IMG/VR virus record: IMGVR_UViG_3300038312_000193
Direction: 5' to 3' (one strand)
From: a virus
DNA length: 64,000 nt
Below are positions 15,688-55,418 of the stretch, piece by piece; position 1 is the first letter of the stretch; the number at the start of each line of letters is the position of its first letter. Both the position numbers and the translations under genes were made by a program. The notes under the pieces are model-generated. The model did not search any database and was not told the DNA's origin. It saw nothing but the letters and a program-made list of their open reading frames with translations.

Positions 15688-15774
15688 TGGTGCAGGGCGA
15701 GGGACTTGAACCCTCACTCTCAAATGAGAACTACCCCCTCAAAGTAGCGTGTCTGCCTGTTCCACCAGCCCTGC
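15688..15774 (-). tRNA. tRNA-Leu(GAG)
   Basis: GCAGGGC/GCCCTGC acceptor with encoded ACCA, GGTTCAAGTCC T-arm, anticodon loop TT-GAG-GG, long variable arm. Confidence 0.93.
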
Positions 15775-15779
15775 GAGTA

Positions 15780-17504
15780 TTATGCTATCATTATAGCATA
15801 TTTATTGAATTTTAATAGCCATGAGATAACGTCATCACAAGATGGTGTTATCTCATGGCAATAATTAAAAGGTTTTTCCCATTCAATTTCTAACCATAAT
15901 TTTTCAGGATTTTCTTTATCTCTATTAACAATAATTTTATTTATAAGAAGTGACACATCTATATTAGTTAATTCTCCTGTTTCAATTATATTTTCTAAAA
16001 TTTCTATGGTTTTTAATATCCCTTTTTTTGATTTATTATTAATTTCTTGAAGATTATCTATTTCATTTAATTGTTCTTCAAGTCTTAATTGAGTGGTTTT
16101 TGTGTCTTTAACTAAATCTTTAAAAATATCTTCATCAATTAAACCTTTAGCAAGTTGTTGAGAATAACTTTTAAGTTCATCTTTACATTCCGCTAATTGG
16201 ATATTAATTTTATTTTTTAAAGAATCATAATTATGTTTTTTATCAAGGTTTTCTTTAATTTTTTCATCAACCATTTTTAAAGTTTCTTTAGCAGTTTCTT
16301 TTAATTTATCAACTTGATCTAATATAGTTTTGTCAATATCTGTTTCCAAAATTTGATGTGTTTCACATTCGTTTTTACCATATCTAAAATAGGTTGAACA
16401 AATATAACATATAGGATTATCAGGATTATGACCAATATTCCTTTTAATAAATCCTTTTCCACAATTCCCACATTTCAAAATACCTGCATATTTATAAATC
16501 TTTCCATTCCCTGCTCTCACACTATTACTATTCCTTTTATTTAAAATAGTTTGTGCTAAATTAAAAGTATCTTTATCTATAATTGGTGGGAAAAAATTTT
16601 CATGAATACAATATTCAGATGGATCAGTATTTCTTCTTCCACCTTTTATCATAGTTCTTTGTGTAGTTCCGCATACTAATGTGCCTATATAACATTTGTT
16701 GGTGATTATTCTTTTTATCCCAATTTCACTCCATAAATGTTCATATTGAACATCAGTTTTAGCATTAATTCTATTAAATTTTTGTTTCTTATATAAAGAT
16801 GGAGTAATAACATTTTTTTCATTTAAATGATTTGCTATCTTTCTAAAACCATATCCATTGATATATAAATCAAATATTAGTTTAATTATCCATTCTACTT
16901 CTTCATCAATTATCCACTTATATTTGTCGTTTTCATTAGGATTTTTTATATATCCGAAAGATGGCACAATTACTAAACCGTCCTTTCTTTGTTTGGTTTT
17001 TATAGCACTTCTAATTTTTTTGCTTATATCCTTTATATAAAGTTCATTATACCATGTCTTAATTCCTATAATAGATTCATTTTGATCGTTTTTAGTATCT
17101 ACTGAATCATTGATTGCTATTAATCTTTTTTCATGAGATATAATCCATTCCAAAAATAATAAAGTTAAAGCATTATGTCTTCCAATTCTTGATAAGTCTT
17201 TTGCTATAATACCATATGCTTCGCTGTTTTCTAGTTTATCTTTAATAAGATTAAATCCAGGTCTATCAAACTTATAACCAGTAAAATTATCATCGATAAA
17301 TATACCTTTTAATTCTACTTGATTTATAACTGCCCAATCTTGAATTAAATCAATTTGAGTATTAATAGAATCTTTTTTAACATTGTCTTCATCTCTTGAA
17401 AGTCTAACATAACCATAAAAGACGCCAAGATATTTATTATTGGGTGTAGAAGGTTTAATATTACATTCAATATAATTTGAATTGATTTGCTCTTTTGTTG
17501 CCAT
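15780..17504 (-). CDS. Large serine recombinase (phage integrase)
   Basis: YVRLS catalytic motif, DRPGF, DLSRIGR, recombinase domain, Zn ribbon CGNC..YIC..C, coiled coil; AGAGGAG RBS favours ATG 17504. Confidence 0.95.
   Translation of the reverse strand: MATKEQINSNYIECNIKPSTPNNKYLGVFYGYVRLSRDEDNVKKDSINTQIDLIQDWAVINQVELKGIFIDDNFTGYKFDRPGFNLIKDKLENSEAYGIIAKDLSRIGRHNALTLLFLEWIISHEKRLIAINDSVDTKNDQNESIIGIKTWYNELYIKDISKKIRSAIKTKQRKDGLVIVPSFGYIKNPNENDKYKWIIDEEVEWIIKLIFDLYINGYGFRKIANHLNEKNVITPSLYKKQKFNRINAKTDVQYEHLWSEIGIKRIITNKCYIGTLVCGTTQRTMIKGGRRNTDPSEYCIHENFFPPIIDKDTFNLAQTILNKRNSNSVRAGNGKIYKYAGILKCGNCGKGFIKRNIGHNPDNPICYICSTYFRYGKNECETHQILETDIDKTILDQVDKLKETAKETLKMVDEKIKENLDKKHNYDSLKNKINIQLAECKDELKSYSQQLAKGLIDEDIFKDLVKDTKTTQLRLEEQLNEIDNLQEINNKSKKGILKTIEILENIIETGELTNIDVSLLINKIIVNRDKENPEKLWLEIEWEKPFNYCHEITPSCDDVISWLLKFNKYAIMIA
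15818..15859. repeat. 42-bp inverted repeat, candidate attP inside the integrase 3' end
   Basis: GCCATGAGATAAC-GTCATCACAAGATGGT-GTTATCTCATGGC. Confidence 0.6.
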
Positions 17505-17528
17505 ACATTCAACTCCTCTAATAGATAA

Positions 17529-17561
17529 ATGAGATAACACATAATTTATGTTATCTCATGG
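17529..17561. repeat. Second copy of the integrase inverted repeat upstream of its RBS
   Basis: ATGAGATAAC-ACATAATTTAT-GTTATCTCAT. Confidence 0.65.
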
Positions 17562-21923: not shown

Positions 21924-21924
21924 A

Positions 21925-22146
21925 TTAATTCTCCTTTTTATTTATATTTTTATTGTTTATAATACCAATAAGTAAAAATATTAATCCCAAACATAATATA
22001 TTTGAAAAAATATCATTTGGATTTGGTTGATAATAATCTAATTTATAAAGAATTGCACCTACGATATTTATTAATCCTGCTAACATAAGTATTAAATTTA
22101 TAATTTTTAGAAATTTATTTTCTTTGTTTTTAATCCAATTAATCAT
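21925..22146 (-). CDS. Two-TM hypothetical membrane protein
   Basis: Two hydrophobic helices; GAAAGGAG RBS. Confidence 0.6.
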   Translation of the reverse strand: MINWIKNKENKFLKIINLILMLAGLINIVGAILYKLDYYQPNPNDIFSNILCLGLIFLLIGIINNKNINKKEN

Positions 22147-22167
22147 AACTTTCTCCTTTCAAAAAAA

Positions 22168-22197
22168 ATCAACACCAAATGTCTCTTTGGAACACAG
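22168..22197. repeat. 12-6-12 site abutting the TnpB right end
   Basis: ATCAACACCAAA-TGTCTC-TTTGGAACACAG. Confidence 0.75.
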
Positions 22198-22320
22198 TTG
22201 AAAAACTTTTCCTATTAAACCCAATAGGCTACCAGTCATTAACTAGGTTGTGTCCCGCAACATCTACTACTTCAACTACTTAAACTTATGCTATCCGTAG
22301 ATACTTTAAATTATTATATT
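22177..22320 (-). ncRNA. Putative TnpB omegaRNA (scaffold ending ..TTTTTCAAC, then guide)
   Basis: Non-coding 3' of tnpB with CCTATTGGGTTTAATAGG hairpin and IS200/605-type TCAA(C) end; 5' boundary uncertain. Confidence 0.6.
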
Positions 22321-23485
22321 TAGTAACTTTATATTGTGAGTTGTCGTTAAGAATATTAATTGCTCCATTAACATCTCTATGCATTATATAACCACAATTA
22401 CATTGATAATTTCTACCTTTTGGTGAATTTAAATTTCCACAACAAGGACACCTCTTGGAAGTCCAATATTCTTTAACTTTGATTAATTTAATATTACTTC
22501 TAATTAATTTATTTTCTAATTGTAACATTATCAATCCATAACACCATTGACTTAATTTTTGTCGAGTTTTTCTACTACCCCTCCCTTCTATTTTAGTATT
22601 TCTAGTACAATCATCTAAATCTCCGTAATAAACAATAGAAATATTATTTTGTAAACAATAATCTAAATAAAGCTTAGTGGTTTTATGTACTGCATCTAAG
22701 ATTTTATTATCAGTATCATATTTTAAATTTTGCATTGCTTTACTATATTTTTTATACTGTTTACTTCCTTTAATGCATTTGCTTTGTCTACTTCTTAATT
22801 TAGCTAACTCTTTATTTCTAAGTCTTTTTATACTTCTAATCTTTCTACCAGTAATTATAATTACATTCCCATTATTATCAATTGAAGTTATACTATGTAT
22901 TTCACCTAAATCTATAGCTGATTCATTATTGGATTGAATTAAATGTTGTTTATTTTCTTCTTTATATTTAATAGCTAGTTTTAAACCATTACGATAAACC
23001 AATTCAATCTCTACAATATTATTAGGAATGTTTTTTAGATGGCATTTAATAGGTTTTTGTCTTCTTTGTTCCTTTTGTTTATTTAATATCATTGGTTTTG
23101 CTAGAGTTAAATATTTTTCATCTTTATATATTTTAATATTTTGATATGTCCAACCAGTATTAAAAAATTTCTTTTCTTTATATGGTAGTTTAACTTTATT
23201 ACTATTTTCGTGTTTTGCCATTATTGATTTCCACATTGCATCCCTAGCAGTAACATATTTTATAATTACAAAATTAATACTATTTGCTAATAATATTGGA
23301 ACAGATTTTTTCATCATAAACTGCAATTCAGATTGAGTAAGAGATTTATTAAATTTCTTACGATTTTTTTGATCTGCTTTAACACAAGCATTCCATACTT
23401 TTGCTGAATATTTGTTACATTTCATAAGATAATCATAATCTTTTTTATTACAATTTACTGGCACTATTAATGTTTTATAAAGTAT
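22286..23485 (-). CDS. tnpB: Solo TnpB RNA-guided endonuclease (IS200/IS605 family, IS1341-like, no tnpA)
   Basis: AIDLG (RuvC-I), EYWTSKRCPCCG/CNCG Zn finger, HRDVNGAINI (RuvC-III); probable ATA start at 23485 after GGAGG. Confidence 0.92.
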   Translation of the reverse strand: MLYKTLIVPVNCNKKDYDYLMKCNKYSAKVWNACVKADQKNRKKFNKSLTQSELQFMMKKSVPILLANSINFVIIKYVTARDAMWKSIMAKHENSNKVKLPYKEKKFFNTGWTYQNIKIYKDEKYLTLAKPMILNKQKEQRRQKPIKCHLKNIPNNIVEIELVYRNGLKLAIKYKEENKQHLIQSNNESAIDLGEIHSITSIDNNGNVIIITGRKIRSIKRLRNKELAKLRSRQSKCIKGSKQYKKYSKAMQNLKYDTDNKILDAVHKTTKLYLDYCLQNNISIVYYGDLDDCTRNTKIEGRGSRKTRQKLSQWCYGLIMLQLENKLIRSNIKLIKVKEYWTSKRCPCCGNLNSPKGRNYQCNCGYIMHRDVNGAINILNDNSQYKVTKYNNLKYLRIA

Positions 23486-29977: not shown

Positions 29978-30898
29978 TTAATCAGTAATTTCAACTTTAT
30001 AATTATACAATGCATTATAAAGTTTCTCAGGAATATCTTTTTTAAATTTATTTGCAACATTCTTTATGTATTCTTCTTTAAATGCTTTATATGCGTAATA
30101 AGCATCTTCAGGATTATCATAACCACCAAGCCACTTATTTTTACGTTCTCCATAATCTGTAATATAAGAACATTGCGCTCTATATTCTTGATCTCTATCA
30201 TGCCAATATACCCCTATTGGTAAATCACCTCTAGATTTATCCGCTTTTAATAATAAAACGTTTATAATATCTGGTACAAATACACAAGTATTGGGAGAAT
30301 ATATTTTATTTCCTTTTATTAAAATGTCTTTATCTAATTCCATTTTATAATTATTTATTTCATAATAATTCTCTTCAGCCCATTTTGCAAAACATTGATA
30401 ATTATACCATTCTTCACATATTGTTACATCAGCATATGTACGATGAAAATTATCATTTTTTATATGTACTCTTTCTATCATTGCTCTCCAATAATCGTAC
30501 CAAATATCATCACAAACATATTTACCTTCTCCTAAAAAACCTATCCCTCTAAAAGTTTTACAATATGGTGATTTTATATTACCTTTATTAAAATGACTCC
30601 ATAATGTTTTTGTAATATAACCATTATCAAATTGAACATATACATTACTAGAATTTATATAATCTATTACAGTTATCTTACTTCCGAAACTATTAAATCT
30701 GGTTTCTCCTATTCTTTTTGAATAATCGTTATGATCAATTGCACCTCTTTTAAAATCAGTATAAGCTAAATTTTTTCTAATAAAACCATTTTCAAATTCA
30801 ACATCAATATCAAAAACACCATTATATTTAATTATTTTCATTTTACATCCTTGATTATTTAGTTTTTCTTCTCCTAATCTATATGATTTTATACTTAT
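29978..30898 (-). CDS. HNH-variant homing endonuclease (probable ATA start overlapping recD2 stop)
   Basis: Repeated RLGE/RIGE..N..G.K..II units, ELDKDIL, LPIGV AP2-like tail. Confidence 0.75.
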   Translation of the reverse strand: MSIKSYRLGEEKLNNQGCKMKIIKYNGVFDIDVEFENGFIRKNLAYTDFKRGAIDHNDYSKRIGETRFNSFGSKITVIDYINSSNVYVQFDNGYITKTLWSHFNKGNIKSPYCKTFRGIGFLGEGKYVCDDIWYDYWRAMIERVHIKNDNFHRTYADVTICEEWYNYQCFAKWAEENYYEINNYKMELDKDILIKGNKIYSPNTCVFVPDIINVLLLKADKSRGDLPIGVYWHDRDQEYRAQCSYITDYGERKNKWLGGYDNPEDAYYAYKAFKEEYIKNVANKFKKDIPEKLYNALYNYKVEITD

Positions 30899-37400: not shown

Positions 37401-37578
37401 TTTTTTTACATAAATCATACATTTCTAAAAAGTTACCTGTCCAACCATGTTGTGTGGTAAACATTGTTGTATGATTTAGTTCCAATGTTCTATCAATATA
37501 ATCTTGTGGTTTCACAACACAATCTAGTGTTCTAATATTTGAATAATGACAATGTTTATGATAATTATTATATCTCAT
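34483..37578 (-). CDS. dnaE: DNA polymerase III alpha subunit (PHP plus polymerase)
   Basis: HKHCHYS PHP, GRGSA, PDIDF, YQESIM, YSFNASH, YLKANYPLEYY. Confidence 0.95.
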   Translation of the reverse strand: MRYNNYHKHCHYSNIRTLDCVVKPQDYIDRTLELNHTTMFTTQHGWTGNFLEMYDLCKKNNLKMIYGAELYIVKDRFEKDNSNNHIIIVGKNQDAFYQLNEIMSESNKTGFYYKPRIDLKLLLSLNPNNFIITSACVAGILKNEESRNIFLEPILKHFGNNFYLEIQAHVHEYQVKYNQKILELNKQYNIDIIHANDSHYIYPEDSYKRDMFLKGKGLKYDEEDGFILDYPDYETILTRYKQQGVLSELQAKEAIKNTLIFDDCEELYFDKEIKMPTIYPNEDSNKKLKSIIVQKWKEEGKNINPNRYKEYMEGIAFEYDIIKNTNMADYFLLNEKIINKAVNEYNGVLTRTGRGSAVSFYINKLLGFTEIDRFEAEVPLYPTRFMSVARILDSKSLPDIDFNWANVDAPIKASKDILGEDNVYYMYAIGFMKESSAFRNLCRAYDLPMDQYNEVGKDLDKYRKDPQWKDLIEESKMFQGVIESISPSPCSFVMLNKPISKELGLVKVGDEICACIDGYTSDVWKYLKNDFLTVRVWKIISDTFKLLNKPIPTIRELKELLDNKVWDLYKNGLTATLNQVDTDLSTTFVKQYKPSNVAEISGFVAAIRPGFASLLNTFLSRQKYSTGVEEIDNILEPSYHFMLYQESIMAFLVWCGLKEDHTYDIIKKIAKKKFKEEELIELKEELRNGFVNNVGNDEKFEEVWQVVEDASRYSFNASHSLSVAWDSIYGAYLKANYPLEYYTVILNEYESDSERTRKIQLELPYFNIKLSDIKFGKSTNIYSFDKETNIIYKSVSSIKFLNSQVAQELYQLSQESEYTNFIDLIKDIKEKTSTNSRQLRILTGLNFFSEFGKNKKLLEILNLYESIADIKQINKDKAVKLELNIDILLKYTEKETNKLYKDIDTISYIKEISELIEDKPLSVKEQVKFEMEFLEYTTVIYPKADKSLYIVVEYKVYKNKCKPYVTLRNLKTGDDLKTKITNEKIFIESSFKLFDVLKVNKFKIQKKTKNINGKWQKTNEDEEILYDYEVY

Positions 37579-38338
37579 CTATATCCTCCGTATCGGCATA
37601 TTTAAATATAAAACCTCCTGCTGTTTTCCTATTGCCTTTACAAACATTACATATATCGCCTTTTTGAATATTAAGATAATCACTTGCTTCTTTAATGGAA
37701 TTATGTATTTTTATTATATTATTATTTTTATCAAGTTGTATTATTTTTTGTTTTCTCTTTTCTCCTTTTTCTTTTACAATAACATTTGGCTCAATATAAG
37801 TACCATCTTCATTTAAATATCGAAAAATTCTTCCGTTAACATTTAATCTTTTGCCTTTACAAACTTCAATTATATGAGAAGCATTAATTAAGTTCATTTC
37901 CATTTTTACTTCATATAATGATTTATATTTTTTAATAATATCTCCTTTAATATTTATTTCTGCTATAGGTTTTAATTCTCTGCCTTGTTTATGTCTGCCT
38001 CTTTCAACCATATCTTGTGAATTATCTTTAATACTTCCAACTTCTAAATGATCTGGATTTATACAGCATGGATTATCACATTTATGTCTAGTGATTTCTT
38101 TTGGAAATTCCAATAATTTTCTTCCTAATTTTTCTTCCAAAACAAGTCGATGAATACCATTGTTTACCATATTCAATTTTATTTGTGCATATCCTTGTTT
38201 ATTTAAAAAATGACTTACGCATTCCCAACATCCTGTTTTTTCATTAACAATGTACTCTATTGGTTTTCGATTATTTACTTTTTGATTATATTTATCTAAT
38301 ATTTTTAAATTTAGTATATTCTTATTAATATAATTCAC
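37568..38338 (-). CDS. HNH endonuclease with NUMOD1 repeats
   Basis: TGCWE, RHKCDNPCCINPDHL..G...DN..DM; I..VCKG.RKTAGGF. Confidence 0.85.
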   Translation of the reverse strand: MNYINKNILNLKILDKYNQKVNNRKPIEYIVNEKTGCWECVSHFLNKQGYAQIKLNMVNNGIHRLVLEEKLGRKLLEFPKEITRHKCDNPCCINPDHLEVGSIKDNSQDMVERGRHKQGRELKPIAEINIKGDIIKKYKSLYEVKMEMNLINASHIIEVCKGKRLNVNGRIFRYLNEDGTYIEPNVIVKEKGEKRKQKIIQLDKNNNIIKIHNSIKEASDYLNIQKGDICNVCKGNRKTAGGFIFKYADTEDIDEI

Positions 38339-45119: not shown

Positions 45120-45818
45120 TTAAGTATTTATATACCTATACTCACCAAAGTATTCTATTTCTGCTTGCTTTCTAACTTCAACAGCTTCATCGAAAATATC
45201 AAAGTAACCTAAATGAATATGTTTATTATTTATAGTAATATATGCCCTCCATTTTTCTTTATCTTCTCGCCAAACAACTCCTTTAATACCAGATGTATTA
45301 TTACTTTGAGTCCTTCTATTCATTTGATTCTGACTTGGAGTAACTATTCTTAGAAATTCCTTTCGGCAATCAAATTTTTTATGAAAAATATGATCTACCT
45401 CCATATCGTCAGGACAGTTCATAATAATTCTGTGCATAAGTATCTTATTATACCCAGTTACAATATAACCATCTTTGTTAAAATGCCAACTATAATTTTT
45501 TATTTTATTATAGTCTTCTAAATCAAACCAAAATTTTTCTTTTTTAAAAGTCCATCCTACTCCATACTCACCTGATAAATCGTATGTATTATGATTTTTG
45601 TTTATTTGACTTATTTCTTTAATTTTTTCTCTTTGTAAGCAACCGCATGATTTAGTATGTCCACTTCTTAAACTTGATCCCTTTATCACTTTTAAACTAT
45701 TTTCACCTTCACAATTACATTGGCATAACCACTGAGGTTGACCCTGTTTGTCATTTTCTGCCCTTTCTAATACAGTCAATCTTCCAAATGTTTTATTTTT
45801 TAAATCTATAATAGCCAA
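45120..45818 (-). CDS. HNH-AP2 homing endonuclease
   Basis: FGRLTV, WLCQC.C, TKSCGC, VDHI, NTSGIKGV...KWRA.I...HLG.F. Confidence 0.85.
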   Translation of the reverse strand: MAIIDLKNKTFGRLTVLERAENDKQGQPQWLCQCNCEGENSLKVIKGSSLRSGHTKSCGCLQREKIKEISQINKNHNTYDLSGEYGVGWTFKKEKFWFDLEDYNKIKNYSWHFNKDGYIVTGYNKILMHRIIMNCPDDMEVDHIFHKKFDCRKEFLRIVTPSQNQMNRRTQSNNTSGIKGVVWREDKEKWRAYITINNKHIHLGYFDIFDEAVEVRKQAEIEYFGEYRYINT

Positions 45819-49198: not shown

Positions 49199-49882
49199 TT
49201 ATATTATATTTTTGATTCTAGGTGTTATAATTTCATCTATGTATTTTGATTTAGTTTCGGTTGCCAGCCAATTACGATTATTTTTAATACAACTTTCAAT
49301 TTCACTACCTGAACCAGCAAAAGGAATATAAACTAAATCATTTTCATTTGAAGATTGAGTTATTAGGATATCAGCAATTTCTACACTTTTTTCAGATGGA
49401 TGTTTCCTTTTTTTACCTTTAGGGAATTTTACATCTATTAAATTAGATATGGAATTATTATTTACTTGTTTTGCCTTACCAATAGAATTTCTAAATAATA
49501 ATACAAATTCTATTTGTTTCATATACCAACCGAATATTACTTTATTACCTTTATTCAGAACTATTACATTCATCAACTTTAAACCACATTTATCTGCATT
49601 ATACAAAATATCTAATAAATTTTTATCATTACTATAAACATATAAATGAGCAGACGGTTTTAATATTCTTTTAAATTCACTCATATATTGATCAGCTTGA
49701 AGATAATCAAATAATTTTCTTTCTTCTTTATTTCTATAAAATATCCCACTTCTCATTTTCCCTGCTCCTCCACCAGCTTCTATTTTATATGGTGGGTCAG
49801 CGATTATTAAATCAATATATTCATTAGGCAATTGTTTCATAAATTCATTGCAATCTTCATTGTATATTTTATTAATTTCTAT
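49199..49882 (-). CDS. N6A/N4C DNA methyltransferase (beta class), probable ATA start
   Basis: IYNEDC, DPPY, HPSEK, PFAGSGS. Confidence 0.9.
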   Translation of the reverse strand: MEINKIYNEDCNEFMKQLPNEYIDLIIADPPYKIEAGGGAGKMRSGIFYRNKEERKLFDYLQADQYMSEFKRILKPSAHLYVYSNDKNLLDILYNADKCGLKLMNVIVLNKGNKVIFGWYMKQIEFVLLFRNSIGKAKQVNNNSISNLIDVKFPKGKKRKHPSEKSVEIADILITQSSNENDLVYIPFAGSGSEIESCIKNNRNWLATETKSKYIDEIITPRIKNII

Positions 49883-49974
49883 GTTTTTGACTCTCCTTTC
49901 TATAACTTTTAATCAAACAAAAATTTGGTGTTGTTTTTGTAATTTATAAATGCCATTATTTCGGACTTTGTATT

Positions 49975-50739
49975 TTATACTATTAATCTGTTTTTTGCAA
50001 TTTCACAATATTTTTCTTCCAATTCGATGCCAATACATTTTCTTTTTAAATTCCTTGATGCTAATAATGTTGTACCAGAACCGCAAGTGAAATCTAAAAT
50101 AAGTTCGTTTTCTTTTGTGTATGTATTAATTAAATATTCTATAAGAGGCACTGGTTTTTGTGTTGGATGTAAACCACTTTCAGAATTAAATTCTAAAATA
50201 TTATTCGGATAATTTGTATATTTTTGAGTATAATCATTTTGTCTGCTTGGACGTTCTTCAATTGTAGTCCCTTTTCTTGATTTGCCTTTATTGCTTTTTT
50301 GTTTATTAATTTCTATTAACCCTTGAGGATAATATTTCATCATGTTTTTACTGCCATTTGCTATGTTTCCAAAACTAAAACACATTACATCTTCATATTT
50401 TTTCATTGGACTATTTTTAGCATTTAGAAAATTACCTACTTTTGATTTAATCCATTTATAATCATATTTATAAAGTTTTTCATTGCTCAATCTTAAATGA
50501 CTACTAAATGGTTCTGTGCCAAATAAACAAATACATCCATCGTCTACTATTAAATTTTCAAGTCTATCCCATATTTCTTTATAATTAATTACACTATCCC
50601 ATTTACATGCTGTAGTCCCATAAGGTGGATCAGTGATTATTGCATCAAATTTTATACCCTTCTCAATAATCTTATCCATCACTTCTAAACAATCACCTTG
50701 AAATAGTCTTATGTATTCATCTTTATAGTATAATTGCAT
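49975..50739 (-). CDS. N6A/N4C DNA methyltransferase (beta class)
   Basis: GDCL, DPPYG, HPTQKP, DFTCGSGTT. Confidence 0.93.
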   Translation of the reverse strand: MQLYYKDEYIRLFQGDCLEVMDKIIEKGIKFDAIITDPPYGTTACKWDSVINYKEIWDRLENLIVDDGCICLFGTEPFSSHLRLSNEKLYKYDYKWIKSKVGNFLNAKNSPMKKYEDVMCFSFGNIANGSKNMMKYYPQGLIEINKQKSNKGKSRKGTTIEERPSRQNDYTQKYTNYPNNILEFNSESGLHPTQKPVPLIEYLINTYTKENELILDFTCGSGTTLLASRNLKRKCIGIELEEKYCEIAKNRLIV

Positions 50740-50767
50740 CTATAATTAATTCAACCCTCCTTTTATA

Positions 50768-51346
50768 TTATATTTTTACATCACTTTCAACTTCATTACC
50801 CCATACGTCCCAACCTACTCTTTTATTTCTAGCAAACAATTCAATGTAAGGTGCATAACTAACTTTCTCTATCATTTCATACATCTCTTTTGGTTTTTCA
50901 GAATGTTCCCCTCTAGGAGCAACAAATACCGTTTTACCTTGTTGCCTTTTACTATTTAAAGTCTTATATGGCAAAACACCTTTTACACCAAACAAACATA
51001 CTTCATCAAGTCCACGGAAATATTGTCCTAATCCTGCATTTTCAAATTTAAAAGTTTTACCTTCTGAATCAAGACATTCTCCTTTTACCCATGTGATTTT
51101 TGTTTTATATGTAAATCCCCATGCTTTCATAACTTGTAAACCATCTTTAAGAAAATTATTTGTAACCCATAAGTATAAGTGACAATTATCATCTGCTAAA
51201 TTATGTATTGGTAAATTTATAATATCCTTTGTTTTCATTAATGGATAATGTCTATCTGCTCCACGTTTAATCTTTCCTCCACCTGATTCCATCCAAGGAG
51301 GATCGGCATATATTGTTTTATATTTATTAATCTTTTTTACCTCCAT
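50768..51346 (-). CDS. MT-A70 family adenine methyltransferase
   Basis: ADPPW, LYLWVT, HSEKP, IELFAR...GWDVWGNE. Confidence 0.92.
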   Translation of the reverse strand: MEVKKINKYKTIYADPPWMESGGGKIKRGADRHYPLMKTKDIINLPIHNLADDNCHLYLWVTNNFLKDGLQVMKAWGFTYKTKITWVKGECLDSEGKTFKFENAGLGQYFRGLDEVCLFGVKGVLPYKTLNSKRQQGKTVFVAPRGEHSEKPKEMYEMIEKVSYAPYIELFARNKRVGWDVWGNEVESDVKI

Positions 51347-51438
51347 TTTTATATTATTGTTTTATTATGACTTGTGACAAAACCGAAGTTTTGTGTTGAT
51401 TTTTGGATTTATAAAGCCCAATATTACGGGATTCTTGT

Positions 51439-52182
51439 TTAAGCAATTTTGTGATTTTTGACTCTTTCTAAAGATAAATTATAATATTCTTCATCTGTTT
51501 CAAATCCTATGTAATTTCTTTTGGTATTTAAACAAGCTATCGCTGTTGTACCAGAACCCATACAATTATCTAAAACTAATTCATTTTCATTTGTGTATGT
51601 ATTAATTAAGTATTCAAATAATTCCACTGGTTTTTGAGTAGGATGAACTTTTTCTTTCTGATTTGCGTTACCGATTTCAATAATGCTTGTTGGATAGTAT
51701 TCATCATATATTTCTTTTTCTTTAGGTTGATTTATAGTGCCATAACAATCACTTAAAGAATAAAGTTTTCCACCTTTACTTCTCTGTTTTCCTTTTCTCA
51801 TAATTGGATTATATGTAGGCATTTTTTTATAAAAACATAATATTAATTCATGTCTTCTTAAAGGTTGTCTTTTGGCATTTAAAAAACCTGTTGATAATTT
51901 TTTATCCCATATTAAATCATATTTAAATAATTTATTATTACTATTAATTAATTTAGTTGCAAATGGTTGTGTAGCAGTAAAACACATCATCCCATTATCT
52001 TTTATAATTCTTTCATACTGCTCCCATAATGGTTCAAATGGAATTATCTCATCCCATTTATTTCTTGCCGTAACCCCATACGGCAAATCACATAAGATCA
52101 TATCAATACTTTTATCTGGTATTAAACACATACCATTTTCTTTAATACAATCTTCATTATAAATAGTATTCAATTCAATCAA
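51439..52182 (-). CDS. N6A/N4C DNA methyltransferase (beta class)
   Basis: CDLPYG, HPTQKP, DNCMGSGTT. Confidence 0.92.
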   Translation of the reverse strand: MIELNTIYNEDCIKENGMCLIPDKSIDMILCDLPYGVTARNKWDEIIPFEPLWEQYERIIKDNGMMCFTATQPFATKLINSNNKLFKYDLIWDKKLSTGFLNAKRQPLRRHELILCFYKKMPTYNPIMRKGKQRSKGGKLYSLSDCYGTINQPKEKEIYDEYYPTSIIEIGNANQKEKVHPTQKPVELFEYLINTYTNENELVLDNCMGSGTTAIACLNTKRNYIGFETDEEYYNLSLERVKNHKIA

Positions 52183-52491
52183 TTTATGTATTATTATCCT
52201 CCTTATTTTTATTTTATGCTTTTAATAGTTTTTTTTCAGAAAATCATGCCTCACAAACGCCCAAATTTCGGACTTCATTTCTGCACCAAATAGAGAATTT
52301 ATCAACACTCCTCTTTAAATGCCTCGTAACACCCTTTTGTATATTCAATTATTTCCATGTCTTCACAATCATTACAATTAAGACTACAAGAGTATTGCCC
52401 ATCTGTGATTTCTTCTACGTCAGCACACCAACTGCCGTATGTATTACACCATTTAGCCATATTTACCTCCAATCATTATGAAACATAGTTT

Positions 52492-52908
52492 TTATGCTGA
52501 TATTTCTTTTCTTACTCTCATAAGAATTTTGCCCAACATATTCTTACCTCTACCCCTGCACACTCCCCAATATATATCATTCCATGTGTTTCCTTCTATT
52601 AACTCCTCATTACCAGTATCAACAAGTCTTTGTCTTAAATCTTGGTTACGAGTAAACTTATCCTTAACACATTGATACATCACTTCGTCTTTAATATCTT
52701 CCCAATCATTTCTAAGTAAAACATTTCTACCTTTCTTCTTTGCTGTTGAAGGGTCAAGTTGGCAAAATTGTTTTCTACGTTCTATATCTTTTACTTTAGC
52801 AGATTGAAAAGCAGCTTCATTATTTTGGTAAAGTAAATCTTCAAATATTACTGGTGCAGAATAAAAATTACTAAGAAAATAATATTTGCCTTTAAATTCA
52901 TTAATCAT
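52492..52908 (-). CDS. NADAR (YbiA-like) family hydrolase
   Basis: FLSNFY, EAAFQSAK, KKKGR, KF..N..L...L..TG, D.YWG, G.N.LGKILM.VR. Confidence 0.92.
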   Translation of the reverse strand: MINEFKGKYYFLSNFYSAPVIFEDLLYQNNEAAFQSAKVKDIERRKQFCQLDPSTAKKKGRNVLLRNDWEDIKDEVMYQCVKDKFTRNQDLRQRLVDTGNEELIEGNTWNDIYWGVCRGRGKNMLGKILMRVRKEISA

Positions 52909-53033: not shown

Positions 53034-54761
53034 TTATATTATTTTTTGTAGTTTCTCCATATATCCCCTATTAACTATTATTATATTATTATCAAAATTT
53101 AGATGATAAAGTTTAAATCCATTGTAATCATAAATATTGGTTATAACTGCTTTAACATTATTATAATTAATTTCTTTTATGTAATCTCCAATAATGTGTT
53201 GTACTTTAATCTTATTTATAATGAATATATCTCCAATTTCATATTCTTCTCTATCCCATAGTAACTTTCTATCTTCAGGAGAAGCAAAATCTAAATATCC
53301 ATTAAAAGTTCTTCCGTATATTTTATTAATTTTTATTTTACGCCATTCACAATATAAATTATCATCAAAATTCATAAGATCACAATAAGTCTCTTTTAGA
53401 GAATCATTTTTATTACCAATAGCTAAAATATCTCTATTATTATAATTAACCGTATAATATTTTCCATCATCCATTTCTAAAAGATATCCCGCTTTAATAT
53501 CATCTATATTGTACATACCTTTCTCCTTTCTTAACCAATTCGATTTTTGGTTTTAATTTTATAGATTACCAATATTTTATTTCCCCATTTTTTCTTACCT
53601 ACTATTTTTATATTATTTTTTAGTTATAAGTTCTTTTTTTAATCTTTCTACTTCTTCTTCAACAATCATAATAATACATGGTTCACTATCTTCATCATTG
53701 TTAAACTTAACTAATTCCAATTCTTTACCGTTATATTCATTACCATAGATTTTATACATAACCAAATAATCTCCATCATCACAAAGAATTTTATGACTAT
53801 TAGAAAATCTCTTTTTACATTCTTCGTATGTCATATTAATATATCTCCTTTATTTAATTCTCCTGTACAATATTATTATAATCAGTTTCAACGACACATT
53901 TTTCATCAACTCTAATTTGTACTAAATTACATTCACTATCCGCACCTACCACCTTACCTTTAACCCCTTTTAGGATACCATTTAAAATTGTTGCTTCTTG
54001 ATTGACTTTTACAGCCATTATTAATCCTCCTTTACATAATTGTATTTTTTATTTTCTTCTCTTAACGGACACCAATCTGGACTAGATTTTTTATAAACAT
54101 TCATTGGAATAGTTAATGCATCTAAAAAATCATCATCAAAAGTATTACCGTAAGTATCATAATCTGGGACAACATATTCACATACATATAAATATCCGTT
54201 TAAACCGTAATCCTCACAGTTTTCACAGGTCTTGCATTTTGGTGTTTTCATAATATATCATCCTTATTTATTTCTTTATGCTCTTTTTTAAACATATAAT
54301 ATTCATGCTTATTTCCGTCAAATAAAACTCTTTTACAATTTTTACAAGTAAGTTTATAATAGCCTGATTCATAAAAATATTCATCAGGCTCGACACGAAA
54401 TTCTTCTTTCAAATTTTTACAACTACATTTTTTATTATTCTTCATCTTCTATTTCTCCATCTTCCCCTCTAACATTCTTTTTTACAGCTTCCCATAATAA
54501 ATCACATAATTCTATTTGATTATTAGTTAATCGTGCCTCACCCGTTTCAAATAATAATGCTATAGAACATCCATAATCTTCATCTAAAATGATCTGTATA
54601 GGAATATCTTGTGAATAATTATCTCTTAAATATTCTAACATTTCTCCAATAGTAAACAGTTTTCTTTTGGTAATATTAGAATTAGTATCCCATTGCTTTA
54701 AAAATACTTTTTCTTTATAATTCAATTCATCCCATTGTTCTTTTGTAATTTGTTGTTTCAT
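53034..54761 (-). other. Hypothetical CDS cluster (53034-53516, 53613-53834, 54021-54251, 54248-54445, 54435-54761)
   Basis: ORF track, RBSs. Confidence 0.6.
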
Positions 54762-54806
54762 ATTAATTCCTTTTTAATTCATTTTTCTAATAACTTTCAT
54801 ATGTAA

Positions 54807-55165
54807 TATAGAAAGTAATAGTTACCCGAAATACCTACTACTTTCTATAACCGTACCAACCAATACGGATTAGTCTTTTGACAGCAGGGACACGATATTG
54901 TGTTTACTGTTTTTGCTCGACCACAACTATCACTTTCGGGGAGTAATGGTTGAGTTTGATGTTTGATCCACCCTCAGTCTCCGTCAAGGAAACCTACTTC
55001 CCCCTCTTAGTTATAAGAGTCCCCAGATTTTTAGTTTTGTCTGCTTCCCACCCTTTATTCAGACCATGATTGAAATAACAGAGTTTTTTGAATCTCAATC
55101 ATCCCGTATATAATTCCACTACTTTTAATAGAATTTTTTAGCCACTCTGTCATTAGCTAAGTAGT
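54807..55165 (-). ncRNA. Candidate ~360-nt structured non-coding RNA
   Basis: ORF-free, GC-elevated, many hairpins, G-U pairs favour the minus strand, complementary loops CCCGAAA/TTTCGGG. Confidence 0.65.
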
Positions 55166-55271
55166 TTCATTATATACACTCACCAAATTAACTTATAATA
55201 AAATAAAATAAGTATATCAAACTTTATTATGTATTTTTATTATAATTTTTTATATTATAGTTTTAATATAT

Positions 55272-55418
55272 TTAACTAATCTTATTAATTCCATAAAATA
55301 TTACATTAATAATTGCAAAACCAATATTAAGTACCGTTCCACAAATATTTTCTTTTGCCGCAAAATAAGCTGCTAATAGTATACATGCGACTATTAATAT
55401 TAAACTTATAGTAGACAT
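55272..55418 (-). CDS. 48-aa hydrophobic two-helix peptide (not in ORF track)
   Basis: MSTISLILIVACILLAAYFAAKENICGTVLNIGFAIINVIFYG..; GGAGGGGG RBS. Confidence 0.65.
   Translation of the reverse strand: MSTISLILIVACILLAAYFAAKENICGTVLNIGFAIINVIFYGINKIS

Follow-up and report, generated by a model that had tools for sequence, protein, structure and literature searches.

Within a 64,000-nucleotide stretch of viral DNA (IMG/VR record IMGVR_UViG_3300038312_000193, here called the window) lies a segment without any long open reading frame (ORF), which a preliminary description made from the letters alone had read as an orphan, highly structured RNA of ~360 nt with a potential kissing loop. The locus raises the question of whether such an RNA is real, how it is built, and what it might do for the phage that carries it.

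A conserved, non-coding RNA module on the minus strand

Homologues of the segment were collected by three routes. The 108-residue protein encoded downstream led to a contig in ENA (L002), in which the RNA lies upstream of a 95% identical gene; an invariant 23-nt pattern retrieved two loci from JGI metagenomes (L006 and L007); and exact look-ups of neighboring proteins yielded L098-L101, L103-L106, L107 and L108. L098-L101 proved to be identical copies of the window type and L103-L106 identical copies of the L007 type, while L107, which is full length, and L108 are two further new variants. This collection, run as a check on the preliminary description, gave six distinct sequence variants on about 14 metagenome contigs, with compensatory changes in most helices. 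The contigs come from fermentation, digester-type and other metagenomes, and in all of them the RNA is a discrete module. Similarity among the loci starts at UGGUGAG and ends after UUACAUAU(G/U)AAAGU (alignments A2 and A7), and these sharp limits define the module as positions 54793-55185 of the window on the minus strand, about 390 nt. A structured RNA is thus present at the place claimed, but it is longer than the ~360 nt first assigned to it, in which an outer helix (P1, below) had been missed.

The two properties that had set the segment apart, an elevated G+C content and a lack of ORFs, were both borne out. G+C content is 0.395-0.405 in the RNA stretch and 0.18-0.28 on either side of it. 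The longest ORFs on the minus strand between 54790 and 55200 encode 32-39 amino acids, and none of these is conserved across the homologues. The only long frame, located in the 3' half, is open in the window and in L007, and it is shifted by a 1-nt insertion in L002 and by a different 1-nt insertion in L006. Since these indels disrupt the sole long frame, the coding reading was dropped and the element is considered non-coding. No conserved peptide was found in the element, and the open frame of the 3' domain, used as a query against a protein collection, returned no match.

The minimum free energy calculated for a 411-nt stretch covering the RNA was -103.9 kcal/mol (z-score -3.4), and none of 100 shuffled sequences was equally stable. 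The plus strand gave the same z-score, so that folding energy cannot pick the strand. A G-U cell on one strand, however, is an A-C mismatch on the opposite strand, and a helix table made by hand for the variants contains 53 G-U or U-G cells versus 7 A-C cells, six of which represent one conserved mismatch. This imbalance places the RNA on the minus strand, in agreement with the preliminary description, which had relied on the same type of pair. Positions 54793-55185 therefore constitute a conserved, non-coding, structured RNA module.

We then compared the module with known families. Rfam 15, whose models include ROOL, GOLLD, OLE, raiA, HEARO, pRNA, EAR, T-box, RNase P, 6S and SRP, gave no match anywhere in the window at gathering thresholds, and no family match for the window region or for L002, L006 and L007 at E<=5-10. 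The matches obtained under these permissive settings were chance-level hits to snoRNA, miRNA and CRISPR-repeat models, all far below gathering scores. ARAGORN called no tRNA or tmRNA at the RNA, its sole call over the window being a tRNA-Leu at 15688-15774. The earlier failure to match the segment to tRNA, tmRNA, RNase P or a group I or II intron was thereby upheld, and ROOL, GOLLD and raiA, the families proposed there for comparison, gave no match either. A full-text literature search for four conserved words of the RNA found no report. The RNA, which has good helix-level covariation and two conserved loop complementarities (described below), is a real and previously undescribed structured family.

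Secondary structure and complementary loops

Thirteen helices are supported in the RNA, in a three-part layout consisting of a 5' domain (P1, P1a and P1b with P2), a middle domain (P3-P5) and a 3' domain (Ha-Hd). The three domain alignments together contain 17 pairs that are changed on both sides, with 97-100% of their cells paired; in the hand-made helix table, 454 of 465 cells are canonical and 18 of 95 columns are compensatory. All supported helices are local hairpins arranged in series, and support for a long-range closing helix was not found. The features are as follows.

55169-55178 / 55105-55114, minus strand: helix P1, 10 bp, one both-sided change (A-U to G-C)
55160-55165 / 55118-55123, minus strand: helix P1a, 6 bp, ACTACT/AGTAGT, enclosed by P1
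55154-55158 / 55140-55144, minus strand: helix P1b, 5 bp, enclosed by P1
55144-55150, minus strand: loop motif ACAGAGU (5' partner of K1), complementary to 55078-55084
55092-55102 / 55066-55076, minus strand: hairpin P2, 11 bp, ATGATTGAGAT/ATTTCAATCAT, with a 15-nt loop
55078-55084, minus strand: ACUCUGU (3' partner of K1), within the P2 loop
55060-55064 / 55039-55043, minus strand: hairpin P3, GUCUG/CAGAC, with covariation
55045-55055, minus strand: conserved purine loop of P3, AAGGGUGGGAA
55004-55019, minus strand: P4 (CTCTTA/TAAGAG), a 6-bp hairpin with a tetraloop
54968-54998, minus strand: block of AGUAGGU, P5 and GAGGG(U/G)GG, the last at 54968-54975
54988-54994 / 54976-54982, minus strand: hairpin P5, GGUUUCC/GGAGACU, two both-sided changes
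54916-54954, minus strand: Ha, outer stem CUCAACC/GGUCGAG with a conserved A.C mismatch
54942-54947 / 54929-54934, minus strand: inner stem of Ha, loop CCCCGAA
54881-54910, minus strand: Hb, ACAGUA/UGCUGU around ACAC/GUGU, an RNAalifold prediction
54851-54868, minus strand: hairpin Hc, CCGUAU/GUACGG, loop UGGUUG, U-G to C-G in L002
54807-54849, minus strand: terminal hairpin Hd, 15 bp plus 2 bp, three both-sided pairs

In the 5' domain (alignment A9), 97.1% of cells are paired and five pairs are changed on both sides, versus 0-1 in slid controls. The variation is most pronounced in P1b, where four of the five pairs are changed on both sides in L002 and where the stem is deleted in L107 with its loop motif retained. 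P2 is paired in 95.5% of cells, and its changes are one-sided only (A-U to G-U).

The middle domain is variable and comprises three hairpins that display the conserved purine-rich motifs AAGGGUGGGAA, AGUAGGU and GAGGG. Alignment A12 of this domain is 97.7% paired with both-sided changes in 8 of 18 pairs, values that none of 500 shuffles reached; this alignment was fitted to a model and so leans towards pairing, but the hand-made table agrees with it. The entire P3 stem is swapped for CUAUAG/CUAUAG in L002 while the loop AAGGGUGGGAA is unchanged. P4 keeps its 6 bp even though three to four of the six pairs are changed on both sides, with UAAC, CAAC, GCAA or AUAA as the tetraloop, and the P5 stem ranges from 3 to 7 bp across the variants.

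The 3' domain, by contrast, is about 95% identical among variants. All of its 275 cells are paired, with four both-sided pairs and none in the slid controls. The inner stem of Ha changes from C-G to U-A in two variants, whereas the sole variation in the outer stem is one-sided (U-A to U-G). Hb is invariant, so that covariation speaks neither for nor against it. No U-tract follows Hd.

Most of the helices listed in the preliminary description, namely ACTACT/AGTAGT, ATGATTGAGAT/ATTTCAATCAT, CTCTTA/TAAGAG, CTCAACC/GGTCGAG, CCGTA/TACGG and the hairpin at 54807-54849, are backed by covariation or conservation. Two others, CAGA/TCTG and GGAAG/TTTCC, fail in other variants, and covariation favors P3 and P5 in their place.

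The potential kissing loop was found where it had been placed: CCCGAAA in the loop of Ha (54934-54940) is complementary over 6-7 nt to UUUCGGG in the loop of Hd (54825-54831), and both partners of this pair (K2) are unchanged in all six variants. Comparison of the loops added a second pair (K1), in which ACAGAGU in the P1b loop is complementary over 6-7 nt to ACUCUGU in the P2 loop; the 5' motif is invariant in the four sequences that cover it. When the nine hairpin loops were shuffled, at least two loop pairs with at least six contiguous Watson-Crick matches arose in 0.4% of cases. In L107, P1b is gone, ACAGAG lies in an enlarged P1a loop and one base of the Ha stem is lost; both loop pairs are nevertheless kept. 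The invariance of K1 and K2 fits loop-loop contacts, which covariation neither supports nor refutes. A third complementarity, legible in the sequence, connects CAACCA (54947-54952) with the Hc loop UGGUUG and competes with the outer stem of Ha, and some single-sequence folds contain UGGUC/GACUA in place of that stem. The 3' domain may possibly form a switch or a double pseudoknot.

On the opposite strand (54851-54868, plus), Hc and the ATTAGTCTTT that follows it are scored as a weak terminator-like site in every copy. This plus-strand signal probably arises incidentally from the hairpin of the RNA itself.

Distribution and genomic setting

The window comes from an SPbeta-like phage that infects an anaerobic Firmicute, and its genes include those for a YOMG-type tail protein, a Pol III alpha-type polymerase, a serine recombinase, NrdD with its activase, and an NAD-dependent ligase. 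Its closest relative in the genome databases is a 149-kb contig within a Clostridium sp. metagenome-assembled genome (MAG), in which Pol III is 86-89% identical to that of the window. In this contig (NZ_JAJFUC010000015.1, 149,326 bp; L083/L086) the polymerase homologue is split over both contig ends. Rather than host DNA, it probably represents an entire phage genome in circularly permuted form.

The RNA has a very restricted distribution. Four exact-pattern scans of IMG/VR for different conserved parts returned 0 matches, as did an exact scan of the GTDB species genomes for the 3'-domain pattern. Neither BLAST nor a covariance model of the 3' domain (R1) found the RNA in 49 related IMG/VR records, a set that includes 15 with a completeness of at least 90%. 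A covariance model of the middle domain (R2) produced only false positives in 49-50 related SPbeta-like records, its best matches lying inside an ORF and being devoid of the conserved loops. BLAST against 392 host-family genomes gave short AT-rich chance matches only. The RNA is likewise absent from the Clostridium sp. MAG that contains the closest relative, where the lone R1 match is a host terminator-like hairpin. In GenBank phages, blastn with the RNA detected no similar DNA, and a 5.6-kb neighborhood matched them through the NADAR gene only. The RNA is thus a rare, sporadic accessory element, carried in the early region by a few SPbeta-like Clostridium phages and exchanged within a narrow group. 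The six variants are all fairly close, and some of their changes are common by descent.

The surroundings of the module change from locus to locus. Flanking genes differ in three of four contexts and the flanks are unrelated between loci, there being three unrelated kinds of gene 3' of the RNA and at least three kinds of upstream DNA. The neighboring features in the window, and an additional segment at two other loci, are listed here.

55500-55472, minus strand: near-consensus sigma-A-type promoter TTGACA-17-TATACT, ~290 nt upstream of the core
55272-55418, minus strand: gene for a 48-aa hydrophobic peptide, between the promoter and the RNA
54435-54761, minus strand: first downstream gene, 108 aa, no assigned function, shared with L002 only
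L007:5585-5782 (minus) and L105:553-749 (plus): extra segment of ~195 nt directly upstream of the core

The promoter and the 48-aa gene lie upstream as the preliminary description had placed them, but neither is a conserved partner. The L007 promoter has the same two hexamers with 17-nt spacing and is found ~190 nt upstream of the core. The peptide, which has two hydrophobic segments, is encoded in window-type copies only; none of L007, L105 and L107, which represent the two other variants with an available 5' flank, has its gene ahead of the core, and it is not part of the conserved module. A possible role for it is that of a small membrane effector, for example an exclusion factor or a peptide of the holin or toxin type. 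Downstream, L007 and L006/L107 have unrelated genes at the position of the 108-aa gene, and no conserved partner gene adjoins the RNA among the loci compared.

The extra segment in L007 and L105 is conserved, ORF-free and located between the upstream DNA and the core. It is absent from the window and from L107, which shares the upstream DNA of L105. It has modest predicted structure with one compensatory pair, gave no Rfam match, and may either extend the RNA at its 5' end or form a leader of its own.

The RNA is always sense-oriented within an early gene array. A scan of the minus strand called no intrinsic terminator between 44001 and 54800, and the ribosome-binding site of the next gene, which differs between loci, lies 15-40 nt past the conserved block. 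Based on this arrangement, the RNA is most likely made within an early polycistronic transcript. A possible promoter of its own (TTGATA-17-TATAAG) can be made out visually ahead of the core in the window, but none proximal to the RNA passes the promoter scan in L007 or L107. Since no proximal promoter was called at these two loci and no terminator follows the RNA, it may never be a separate molecule.

Genes 2-5 kb downstream of the RNA and in the same direction encode methyltransferases and NADAR. Specifically, four DNA methyltransferases (three N6_N4_Mtase and one MT-A70) and NADAR are arranged in tandem at 49199-52908 (minus). In L007 the RNA comes after a Dam-type methyltransferase, and these neighbors at the two loci suggest that the RNA travels with counter-defense cargo.

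Elsewhere in the window, three free-standing genes resemble HNH or AP2-type homing endonucleases (37568-38338, 45120-45818 and 29978-30841, all minus). The first of them combines an HNH domain with a NUMOD domain of the I-HmuI type, and it overlaps the gene for Pol III alpha at the start of the latter. Longer polymerase matches in L054, L065 and L074 suggest that some relatives carry insertions in the polymerase gene. A tRNA-Leu(GAG) lies beside the gene of a large serine recombinase (15780-17540), and the region 15688-17540 (minus) may be the integration module and attachment region.

Possible roles and comparison with known RNAs

To our knowledge, few bacterial or phage non-coding RNAs of more than 300 nt have dense conserved tertiary-type contacts. 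Those that are known have proved to act as ribozymes, to form the cores of ribonucleoproteins or, in recent work, to build cages of RNA only. The present RNA is a compact candidate for this group. At ~390 nt, with clear domains, two designable loop-loop contacts and a near-invariant 3' domain of ~150 nt, and placed close to methyltransferase and NADAR counter-defense genes in the early accessory region of a phage of anaerobes, it is also experimentally tractable. Its general importance is limited by its rarity, with six variants from digester or fermenter metagenomes.

The reading we favor, tentatively, is that of an early-transcribed stable RNA which acts in trans through its folded surface and is of the same kind as ROOL and GOLLD. 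Under this proposal, the strong upstream promoter would drive early transcription of the RNA along with the neighboring genes, a loop-loop contact would lock each of the two end domains, and the long terminal hairpin would shield the 3' end after processing. The resulting stable RNA would then bind a host or phage macromolecule in trans during takeover or counter-defense. If it does act in trans, it would add an RNA to a phage takeover and anti-defense repertoire that is mostly protein-based.

By kind, ROOL and GOLLD are the closest known RNAs, and the present RNA is not a member of either. Like them it is phage-borne, large for a bacterial non-coding RNA, rich in helices, with putative contacts through loops, and free of an associated protein gene. 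The combination of a conserved 3' region with a variable 5' region is also seen in GOLLD, which makes use of kissing loops comparable to the complementary loops found here (PMC12286853). However, ROOL is well over 500 nt, with a published structure numbered to at least 464, and many GOLLD RNAs exceed 800 nt (PMC12286853), whereas the present RNA has ~390 nt, no Rfam model match and a very narrow distribution. It also differs in having no adjoining tRNA gene, the only tRNA of the window being 39 kb away. A target in trans was sought through the 7-mers of the loops, and this idea was rejected: neither they nor their complements are enriched elsewhere in the window, with 1-3 occurrences seen versus 1-2.5 expected.

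The main alternative, which we regard as doubtful but serious, is that the RNA acts in cis as an element of the early polycistronic mRNA, either in processive antitermination of the HK022 put or Bacillus EAR type or as a 5' stabilizer or processing module. In the stabilizer version, purine-rich Shine-Dalgarno-like motifs and hairpins would protect the downstream message, and several G-rich motifs of this type can indeed be read in the RNA. The invariable sense orientation in an early gene array, the near-consensus promoter 190-290 nt upstream in both contexts for which upstream DNA is available (the window and L007), and the lack of a terminator between the RNA and the next gene all favor a role in cis. 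Such a role would be independent of the genes that follow, which fits their variability. As with put and EAR, the RNA is structured, has no protein gene of its own and is situated near a promoter heading a long same-strand array. Of the features looked for in an antitermination element, the promoter-proximal position in a long operon was thus found, but terminators to be read through were not: no intrinsic terminators that would have to be overridden are predicted in the 10 kb downstream. Furthermore, close relatives with the same genome plan are without the RNA, which is therefore accessory and not needed for early transcription. With ~390 nt and 13 helices it is, from general knowledge of their sizes, several times larger than put or EAR, and permissive scans over every Rfam family found no match. 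If the RNA nonetheless has a cis function, few early-operon elements of Firmicute phages would be expected to be as elaborate.

Several further roles were rejected. There is no regulatory platform of the kind expected of a riboswitch or T-box cis-regulator, since Hd has no U-tract and the downstream ribosome-binding sites are outside the block, locus-specific and not conserved. The resemblance of GGGUGG to a T-box motif was discounted because no model matched and because the motif is in a hairpin loop and not in an antiterminator bulge. CsrA-type enrichment was not apparent, with ~7 GGA motifs versus ~7.6 expected by a hand estimate. A replication origin or R-loop primer was rejected since close relatives do not have the element.

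A bolder and unlikely reading would make the RNA a new class of phage machine that needs no dedicated protein, either a homo-oligomer formed via the two loop contacts, like the cages of ROOL and GOLLD, or a folded decoy or aptamer that sequesters a component of host defense or translation. If either were true, the RNA would be far smaller than the ornate RNAs known so far and more tractable than they are.

Self-assembly may also be considered by itself, with the loop pairs acting between molecules to form a homo-oligomer, whether a ring like that of phi29 pRNA or a cage of the ROOL and GOLLD type; we judge this quite unlikely. Its basis is the presence of two perfectly complementary, invariant loop pairs. 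In addition, L107 has no P1b and an unchanged P2, so that its ACAGAGU arm is shorter and a fixed intramolecular geometry is not obviously kept. Quaternary kissing loops are documented in the phage-borne ROOL and GOLLD (PMC12286853). Intramolecular contacts are equally compatible with the loop pairs, however; ROOL and GOLLD are both much larger RNAs; and no palindromic loop or other signature of intermolecular contact was found in it. The packaging RNA of phage phi29 is defined by the pairing of two hairpin loops, and the present RNA is likewise a phage RNA with two complementary hairpin loops. It is, however, more than twice the size of pRNA and has no Rfam match, and it is located in the early accessory region of a genome of roughly 150 kb, whereas pRNA lies at the genome end beside the packaging genes. 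Its absence from close relatives indicates that it is not an essential packaging part.

A selfish or catalytic RNA, that is, a degenerate ORF-less group II- or group I-like intron or a large ribozyme mobile between phages, is very improbable. It is suggested by the recurrence of the module, as a discrete unit, in three or more genomic contexts and by two apparent resemblances to group II introns, which serve as leads. The block starts with GUGAG or GUGUG, similar to group II GUGYG. In Hc (CCGUAU...GUACGGUU), the arms CCGUAU/GUACGGUU have the same sequence as the lower helix typical of domain V, and a long hairpin comes next. Hc, however, lacks the defining features of the 34-nt domain V hairpin: it has AUC at the position of the AGC/CGC catalytic triad, a 6-nt loop directly on a 6-bp stem, and neither the two-base bulge, the upper helix nor the GNRA tetraloop. 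The architecture of domains I-IV is missing as well, with no six-domain wheel and no long-range closing helix for domain I, and the group I and II models of Rfam were unmatched even at E<=10. A group I intron was also rejected for want of a match to the Rfam model of its conserved P3-P9 core and because the flanks, which are unrelated between loci, are not parts of one gene; nor are they exons of any conserved gene.

Finally, a type I toxin-antitoxin locus formed with the 48-aa membrane peptide is hardly credible: a small hydrophobic peptide gene does lie directly upstream behind a strong promoter, but it is missing upstream of the core in the loci noted above, the RNA is downstream of it on the same strand and not antisense, and a conserved plus-strand promoter was not found.

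An omega RNA of the TnpB/IscB type, which adjoins the 3' end (TnpB) or the 5' end (IscB) of its nuclease gene, was also rejected, as the only TnpB-like gene of the window (22286-23464) is 31 kb away. With the RNA as the BLAST query, the remainder of the window showed no similarity in the 3' flank of this gene, and no TnpB/IscB-type neighbor was present at the homologous loci. The gene itself (minus strand) is a 392-aa ORF with Cas12f1-like TNB and OrfB_IS605 domains in the nucleotide-metabolism region, and its 3' flank at 21924-22285 is ORF-free over ~360 nt. This flank probably carries the TnpB-like gene's own guide-RNA scaffold, unrelated to the RNA element described here.
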